DNA of 64,000 bases. It comes from Anaeromyxobacter sp. Lineage in GTDB: Bacteria; Myxococcota; Myxococcia; Myxococcales; Anaeromyxobacteraceae. Position 1 is the stretch's first letter, and the number at the start of each line of letters is the position of its first letter. Shown here one piece after another: positions 32,770 through 33,440 of this stretch. The stretch lies in assembly GCA_049840735.1 (NCBI GenBank), contig JASGJN010000026.1:160001-224000 (forward strand). The letters run 5' to 3'. The position numbers were made by a program, and so were the translations under genes. The notes below the pieces were generated by a model that was not told the origin of the DNA, did no database searches, and saw nothing but the letters and a program-made list of their open reading frames with translations.

Positions 32770-33200
32770 CCCGCGGCGGCCGCCGCTCGCCCTCCTGCAG
32801 GTCCGGGGCGAGCGGAAGAGGCCGCCTCGGCGCCGCCGGGCACCCTCGCCGCCCGGCGCGCCGACCCTCCCGCCACCCCCGCGCTCGCCGCCCCTCCGGG
32901 CCTCCGGACGGCGCCCGCACGCCGTGCGCGGGCCGTCGCCGCGCTGCGCCGCGCCTCGATCGCCGCCGCGGGGGCGCGCGAGGCGCTCCGGCCGGATTCC
33001 GATCTCATTCCGATCACTTCCGCCACCTCCGCCGACCGCTCCGGAGGGCGCTCTCGGTCGGTGATTGTGACTTCAAGTGAGATCGGGCCCTCACTTGAAG
33101 TGTACCCAGGGGCACCGCCGAGGAGATCTGGATTCGGATCGATCGGGATCCATCCGGGTGCGAGGAGGAGATCGCTTGTCAAAAAACTCGTCTCGCTTCC

Positions 33201-33230
33201 TTGACGATCATGATCCCGGCGCGTTAACCT
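33201..33230 (+). promoter_or_regulatory. Putative sigma70 promoter of the small basic peptide gene
   Basis: TTGACG-N18-TAACCT; two GATC sites overlap the -35 and spacer; A-tract upstream. Confidence 0.55.
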
Positions 33231-33296
33231 CCGTGCAGTTGTCCATTGAAAAGTGTCCATCGATTCTCGAATGGACCGTTCCGAGGAGGGAACAAG

Positions 33297-33383
33297 ATGC
33301 CCGCGAAGAAGACTGCCAAGAAGGCCCCCGCGAAGAAGGTCGCCGCCAAGAAGCCGGCGAAGAAGGCCGCGAAGAAGAAGTAA
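33297..33383 (+). CDS. 28-aa Lys/Ala/Pro-rich histone-H1-like peptide MPAKKTAKKAPAKKVAAKKPAKKAAKKK
   Basis: GAGGAGG RBS, ATG...TAA, all Lys codons AAG, followed by a terminator; below the ORF-track length cutoff. Confidence 0.8.
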   Translation: MPAKKTAKKAPAKKVAAKKPAKKAAKKK

Positions 33384-33405
33384 GCGGTCCGAACTTCGAA
33401 GCGAT

Positions 33406-33440
33406 GCTGGCGGCCGCCTCCGGGCGGCCGCTGCTTTTTT
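33406..33440 (+). terminator. Rho-independent terminator
   Basis: gcggccgcc-tccg-ggcggccgc stem followed by tgcTTTTTT. Confidence 0.85.

Follow-up and report, generated by a model that had tools for sequence, protein, structure and literature searches.

The window, by which we mean the whole 64,000-nucleotide stretch analysed, contains a Lys/Ala/Pro micropeptide ORF on its + strand at 33297-33383 (28 aa, TAA stop). The ORF has a repeat spacing of 12-15 nt and translates as MPAKKTAKKAPAKKVAAKKPAKKAAKKK, a peptide of about five repeats with 13 Lys and zero Asp/Glu (2.9 kDa; charge at pH 7 computed as ≈ +12.5). The Shine–Dalgarno (SD) sequence GAGGAGG (33283-33289, +) lies in the loop of a predicted 5-bp hairpin (33278-33293), and GGAGG is found 5-9 nt 5′ of the ATG in 29/29 loci of the family. 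Control of the SD hairpin by CsrA was rejected, since the genome to which the window belongs has no detectable csrA. Further upstream, a sigma-70-type promoter (33201-33230, +) consists of a −35 box TTGACG (33201-33206), an 18-nt spacer and a −10 box TAACCT (33225-33230). An A-tract 5′ of the −35 box (33181-33186, +) may be an UP element. A generic sigma-70 scan of the region returned 0 promoters and missed TTGACG-N18-TAACCT. We nevertheless call it a promoter because it is conserved, a similar one lying 5′ of 55/55 orthologues examined, and because RNA starts at this place in a relative. The gene ends at an intrinsic terminator (33408-33440, +), an 11-pair stem (33408-33433) followed by a T run; the stem is nearly invariant across the family. 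About 20 nt past the T run begins the conserved downstream neighbour, rqcH (NFACT family; 33462-34922, +). The upstream neighbour in the window is a ROK-family gene with its stop at 32769.

A sequence-only reading of this DNA had described the 28-aa ORF, its ribosome-binding site, the promoter and a terminator of its own, and all are present where it placed them; the ≈ 520 bp of non-coding DNA that it reported before the ORF measures 527 bp from the ROK stop to the ATG. The peptide matched no model in Pfam or NCBIfam, and it is encoded by the one standalone lysine-rich ORF of this type in the window's own genome. Within the non-coding region, an inverted repeat at 33070-33101 has perfect 12-bp arms around an 8-nt loop; by eye, it is absent from locus L011. 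The ROK gene is broken by two frameshifts (31873-31878 and 32519-32521), one at a GAGACCG-like word and the other at GATC, and the phosphomannomutase gene 5′ of ROK is also split, at about 31115 and 31205. These splits are probably assembly errors.

The ORF proved to be conserved next to rqcH. The loci anchored on rqcH were selected from the 114 and 131 genomes in which rqcH was matched; families are numbered, f1 being that of Anaeromyxobacter and f6 that of Myxococcus. The stretch from promoter to rqcH was matched in 24/24 genus genomes searched, and the lysine-rich ORF was intact in all 20 genus loci extracted (own included). Of 30 family loci, the own one among them, 29 have it as the next gene upstream of rqcH, and the remaining locus stops at a contig end. 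In the other families of Myxococcales, the ORF was upstream of rqcH at 26/40 loci: f2 1/1, f6 13/15, f8 7/7, f9 1/1, f3 2/5 (two truncated at contig ends) and f4 2/11 (one truncated). Among distant Myxococcota (other orders and classes, some of low GC), it lies at most ≈ 600 nt upstream of rqcH in 14/35 genomes (f14 8/11, f16 3/3, f20 2/2, f10 1/1). In f12 (0/7), f24 (0/4), f18 (0/2) and five single genomes, the search upstream of rqcH gave no such ORF; two of the loci without it in this distant set are cut short. Thus, of the setting between ROK and rqcH that had been proposed for a synteny search, rqcH is the stable neighbour. ROK was rejected as a fixed neighbour, lying within the flank in just 13/30 family loci. 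At one locus (L043), an insertion of ≈ 100 nt, repeat-like by eye, separates the terminator from rqcH; tight spacing to rqcH is therefore not obligatory.

At the same position, the ORF can be as short as 20 aa or as long as about 200 aa. The gene is thus real, conserved and standalone, as had been claimed, but the 28-aa peptide is not unique, being the short end of this series. The sequence is of such low complexity that it is synteny which supports the presumed homology between the short forms and the long ones. The 23 distinct family peptides (21-42 aa) contain 48% K and 28% A and no D/E. In four close family pairs of equal length, 6 codon differences were synonymous and 12 non-synonymous; the classical signal of purifying selection is thus absent from these pairs. 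Since composition is kept while the exact sequence drifts, what selection maintains seems to be charge and composition. None of 11 versions of the peptide had an exact counterpart in a collection of 15 billion proteins, and the peptides accordingly have no public names. It does not follow that they are unannotated: the ESM Atlas places the 79-aa form in a cluster of 76 members, mostly Myxococcota, under an uninformative automatic name.

Several lines of evidence point to strong expression. Family orthologues never end in TGA (0/29), compared with 2152/3294 (65%) of background genes, the window genome's background having been applied to all family ORFs; in the ribosomal-protein cluster, 8/33 genes have a TGA stop. 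In the codon bias, the stop codon and some excess of GCT/GTT were the only features that informed on expression. RNA evidence came from raw reads of three runs, all of one study, for the 79-aa orthologue (locus L112) of a Myxococcus relative, a member of another family. Depth reached 2113-4007 in two bins inside the ORF, on one strand and with sharp ends. This is 13-28 times the genome-mean depth, calculated as letters read over the 9.1-Mb genome. The transcript sets in within bin 3263-3283, the predicted start being near 3282 (within 20 nt), and ends at 2928-2929, the foot of the terminator stem. The sense strand of rqcH had a depth of 16-72, compared with an antisense background of 12-72, which puts read-through into rqcH at ≤ ≈ 3%, indistinguishable from background in these three runs. 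The message at L112 is short, monocistronic and abundant. The window gene is probably highly expressed as well, on the strength of these data from a relative; RNA depth is silent on translation, which we infer. In the same reads, G>A changes on the + strand, that is C-to-U in the message, were seen across L112:2981-3239, at 41, 16 and 21 positions in the three runs of the one study and often clustered per read. The maximum was 295/2981 reads at position 3051, and 0 of ≈ 60 opposite-direction reads in the interval carried the change. The signal could come from library chemistry or from a deaminase.

An expression signature resembling that of ribosomal proteins, a very high transcript level in the Myxococcus relative and a linkage to rqcH that runs deep across Myxococcota could all be accounted for if the product were a small basic protein associated with ribosomes or RNA (with a role like that of bS22 or bTHX) or an RNA chaperone, rqcH being adjacent as both act on ribosomes. 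We consider this unlikely. Proteins that dock in a pocket of rRNA are fixed in length and sequence. The peptide varies tenfold in length by repeat gain, has no fixed sequence and matches no Pfam or NCBIfam model; it thus shows neither the fixed length nor the conserved sequence nor the family model that mark a small ribosomal protein. Outside Myxococcota, moreover, genes of the same kind adjoin unrelated genes (see below).

The layout of promoter, short ORF, terminator and gene, with rqcH directly past the T run, also recalls attenuators of the trpL/hisL type, in which a short ORF rich in one residue precedes a terminator and a gene. The ORF would then be a lysine-codon leader peptide on which a stalled ribosome blocks the terminator and turns rqcH on. 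A distance of 23-45 nt from stop codon to stem and the retention of the link between ORF and rqcH across the phylum agree with this idea, which we regard as very unlikely all the same. Upstream sequestering of the 5′ arm of the terminator rivalled the terminator in 0/38 loci, with a mean of −6.5 kcal/mol for the sequestered arm versus −18.4 kcal/mol for the terminator. Nor is the distance between codons and terminator fixed: of the Myxococcaceae forms folded, 8/11 have no lysine in the last 8 codons, and the ORF varies from 20 to 200 aa. In the three RNA runs, the sense signal over rqcH was like the antisense background. Attenuation thus failed the tests of antiterminator and codon position. 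Unlike attenuators of the trpL/hisL type, the locus has no competing antiterminator, spans a tenfold range of lengths and has a variable C-terminus.

Genes of similar make-up are found in other phyla. A pattern of an SD followed by MA[AT]KKK had at least 120 matching loci in a collection of species genomes, a count that is biased, as the pattern fixes the start. Among the 122 matches listed, 61 were complete ORFs that encode 12-40 aa, of which at least 40% are Lys and none is acidic. These 61 mini-genes encode 42 distinct peptides, and 60 of them end in TAA or TAG. Also among the matches listed, a terminator-like hairpin follows 53/61 mini-genes versus 19/43 of the other closed ORFs. With the same pattern, a control on viral contigs gave 4/120, with no terminator. 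Besides Myxococcota, the labels among the matches listed include Acidobacteriota, Dormiibacterota, Eisenbacteria, Gemmatimonadota, Nitrospiria, Binatia, Lentisphaera, Methylomirabilis and Gammaproteobacteria; the records are mostly metagenome-assembled genomes, and some appear mis-binned. The neighbours of the mini-genes vary by lineage. A profile of rqcH matched at 5 of 120 loci listed, all labelled Myxococcota or delta proteobacterium (40 loci had a flank of ≈ 300 nt). For sequences this simple, common ancestry across phyla cannot be shown. A bacterial histone (E 6.8e-14 to PDB 9qt0) also has the MA[AT]KKK start, in its N-terminal tail, as do SWIB-domain proteins in theirs. The histone is L204:1309-1518, and L190 and L219 resemble it by eye. 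At L227:1189-1649, a mini-gene lies directly 5′ of a SWIB-domain gene with a near-identical lysine-rich beginning, and at L158:1501-1580 one lies between the genes for polyphosphate kinase and exopolyphosphatase.

Among the matches listed, 14 loci, nearly all labelled Acidobacteriota (L157, L166-L169, L207, L209, L212, L218, L226, L230, L246, L254 and L268), encode the same 12-aa peptide, MATKKKAKKKKH. Two hairpins follow these ORFs, and a MerR-type gene is often next. That 14 loci of this type differ only synonymously bears on the view that the transcript acts as a small RNA in which the ORF is incidental or secondary. An abundant short transcript with structured ends, leader hairpins that are conserved in the genus and a fold z-score of −2.4 would fit such an RNA. 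The identical peptides speak for a translated product, however, as do the strong SD at fixed spacing and length changes that keep the frame. Rfam gave no match above chance (best E 1.1 for the region in the window; 0 matches in 20 related loci). We regard a small RNA as extremely unlikely.

The explanation that we favour, with moderate confidence, is an abundant polycation resembling a histone H1 tail that binds nucleic acid and helps to compact or shield the nucleoid. A conserved single-gene unit would yield an abundant, unstructured, lysine-rich peptide, provided that it is translated and stable. The peptide would bind DNA by charge and without sequence preference, possibly also RNA or polyphosphate, and once bound would compact or shield the nucleoid in the manner of an H1 tail. 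That composition is kept while sequence is free is as expected of charge-based binding; DNA, RNA and polyphosphate are indistinguishable as the target from sequence. The 28-aa peptide may represent the minimal form, from which repeat gain would lead to Hc2-like proteins of 200 aa. The linked rqcH probably remains next to the unit because the gap before it can scarcely fit a separate promoter, and it may depend on a slight leak of the terminator from the strong promoter upstream.

The nearest known proteins support a role of this kind to different degrees. Hc2 (HctB) of Chlamydia and BpH1 of Bordetella resemble the peptide in their pentamer-like K/A/P/T repeats, in repeat gain and loss and in the lack of a folded domain. 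They differ in size, at 149-237 aa compared with 28 aa and about five repeats here. DNA binding is demonstrated for Hc2, whereas here it is predicted from composition. In the available text of PMC2848022, the length of Hc2 and its relatives (149-237 aa) follows repeat number, and BpH1 is dispensable. The 202-aa orthologue at L125 scored 46.4 bits on the Pfam HC2 model (PF07382; cut-off 40), and the 86-aa and 156-aa forms scored 31.9 and 15 bits, below this cut-off; the window peptide gave no hit. With the NCBIfam models NF038052 and NF038053 (cut-offs 135 and 80 bits), the best score among five forms scanned was 32 bits, and the window peptide had none. The trait of lysine-rich short repeats that vary in number between relatives is present, and at 28 aa the window peptide falls outside the Hc2 length of about 150-240 aa. 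By analogy the gene may work like those of Hc2-type proteins, of which it is no member by models or by length. A peptide of 28 aa would bind more weakly than proteins of many repeats.

In composition, the peptide equals the KPAA tails of AlgP and PhaF and the H1-like tails of CarD, DdbA and HupB. In all five proteins, however, a folded domain carries the tail, whereas here the tail is the entire product. The accessible text of PMC9239181 describes in vitro DNA binding by KPAA-repeat peptides and the positioning and spacing of polyphosphate granules by AlgP. For CarD of Myxococcus xanthus, that of PMC8156234 states that the DNA-binding tail is replaceable by the disordered C-terminal region of H1. 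As excerpted, PMC4766238 presents ScvA and Hq1 of Coxiella as small basic DNA-binding proteins of the condensed-nucleoid cell form. ScvA is stage-specific, and its likeness to the peptide is one of description. At ≈ 30 aa, it is presumably the nearest size precedent for the peptide. In the partial texts within the scope of our search, which left aside paywalled articles and supplementary material (Myxococcus proteome tables, for instance), nothing was found on the gene, on the rqcH link or on mini-genes across phyla; the portion available of a nucleoid-protein review (PMC11894785) contains no relevant passage.

The upstream region is rich in GATC, as the sequence-only reading had pointed out. 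All 11 GATC positions that it listed (32958-33215) were confirmed, and their density is above both backgrounds to which we compared it. Dinucleotide shuffles of the 258 bp gave a mean of 5.8 GATC and reached 11 in 11/5000 (the 258-bp span having been chosen post hoc); shuffles of the whole 527 bp gave a mean of 6.2 and reached 11 in 62/5000. Genome windows of 60-65% GC contain a mean of 1.8 GATC, and 1/2445 reaches 11. Three places in the genome have ≥ 11 GATC in 258 bp, and the other two are tandem repeats. As a conserved element, the cluster was rejected: family loci contain 1-11 GATC in the 350 nt upstream, with a median of 4, the window being the maximum. Of the eleven sites, just one, in the promoter spacer (33212-33215; 9 nt before the −10 box), is conserved at a fixed place. 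It is present in 29/29 family promoters, at the same offset in 23/24 distinct ones, and the columns that flank it are 38-75% conserved. It is also found in 6/7 promoters of f8 and in 0/13 of Myxococcaceae. A second GATC of the cluster belongs to a candidate regulator motif, GATCC-N4-GGGT (33147-33159), which 14/29 family loci have before the promoter, on one strand or the other.

A beta-class adenine methyltransferase was present in 49/50 family genomes by Pfam and in 36/36, in single copy, by the protein itself; in the window's genome it is L310:4975-5829 (G000:C16:48974-49828). Its best plasmid matches are 46-49% identical, and one belongs to the three-gene cassette (methylase, methylase, endonuclease) of pSRQ700, which we take to be specific for GATC. 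This similarity suggests that the family enzyme may likewise recognise GATC. The beta-class enzyme was found in 36/36 f1, 5/5 f3 and 36/36 f6 genomes and was undetected in f8, f4, f2, f5, f7 and f9, most of which have a Dam-family (D12) enzyme. The distributions of the two are near-complementary across Myxococcales. A Dam-family enzyme as the methylase of Anaeromyxobacteraceae was rejected, being found in 6/36 genomes, with a weak and split match in the own genome. No C5 methylase was detected in the own genome (94% complete).

These observations raise the question of whether adenine methylation of the spacer GATC tunes the promoter in Anaeromyxobacteraceae, which could couple output to replication. 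Promoters that respond to methylation are known for Dam at GATC and for CcrM with GcrA at GANTC. The promoter resembles those of the Dam and CcrM/GcrA systems in its fixed, methylatable spacer site, in a lineage with a CcrM-related core methyltransferase. That the site persists while its flanks drift, that f8 has the site together with a Dam-family enzyme (21/24 genomes) and that a ROK frameshift in the window falls at GATC, as expected of methylation-linked assembly errors, all fit. We nevertheless hold this control to be doubtful. Myxococcaceae have the same enzyme in 36/36 genomes and no spacer GATC, so that methylation control is not order-wide. The 11-site cluster is unconserved, and the best PDB match of the enzyme is CcrM. 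Recognition by a protein whose binding site includes GATC by coincidence would explain the conservation equally well. Unlike in the Dam and CcrM/GcrA systems, spacer GATC is not enriched in promoters genome-wide: 389 promoter-like sites showed no excess of GATC at this offset, and a genome-wide promoter class of this kind was rejected. The original proposal of a methylation-responsive promoter thus retains the single site at 33212 within the family and loses the cluster. Such control is compatible with the nucleoid polycation that we favour. The accessible literature, as far as its text could be consulted, contained no Anaeromyxobacter methylome and no study of methylation control in the group.

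What is new here is the count across phyla and its control in viral contigs, the finding that one spacer GATC is conserved, and the distribution of the methyltransferases. A 3-kDa peptide that is half lysine is shredded by trypsin and lies under the usual limits of gene calling; an abundant chromatin component could therefore be overlooked both in myxobacteria and in phyla that dominate soils, Acidobacteriota among them. Speculatively, and with low confidence, one may envisage that oligolysine peptides 12-40 residues long, each from a highly expressed single-gene unit, form an unrecognised class spread over many bacterial phyla. They would serve as polyamines encoded by genes, or as protamines of minimal size, and would make up a major part of the nucleoid that proteomics does not see. 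In Anaeromyxobacteraceae, methylation of a single GATC in the promoter would then tie the gene's expression to replication, much as histone genes follow S phase. The minimum size of a bacterial DNA-compacting protein becomes directly testable, since the orthologue is strongly expressed in a Myxococcus relative that can be grown in culture, and the short forms are within reach of peptide synthesis. Likewise, a spacer GATC together with a core methyltransferase offers a one-site test of methylation control. Finally, the f8 promoters at L080 and L083-L085 have in common an AT-rich, palindrome-like motif ≈ 50-75 nt upstream of the −35 box, possibly the site of a regulator.
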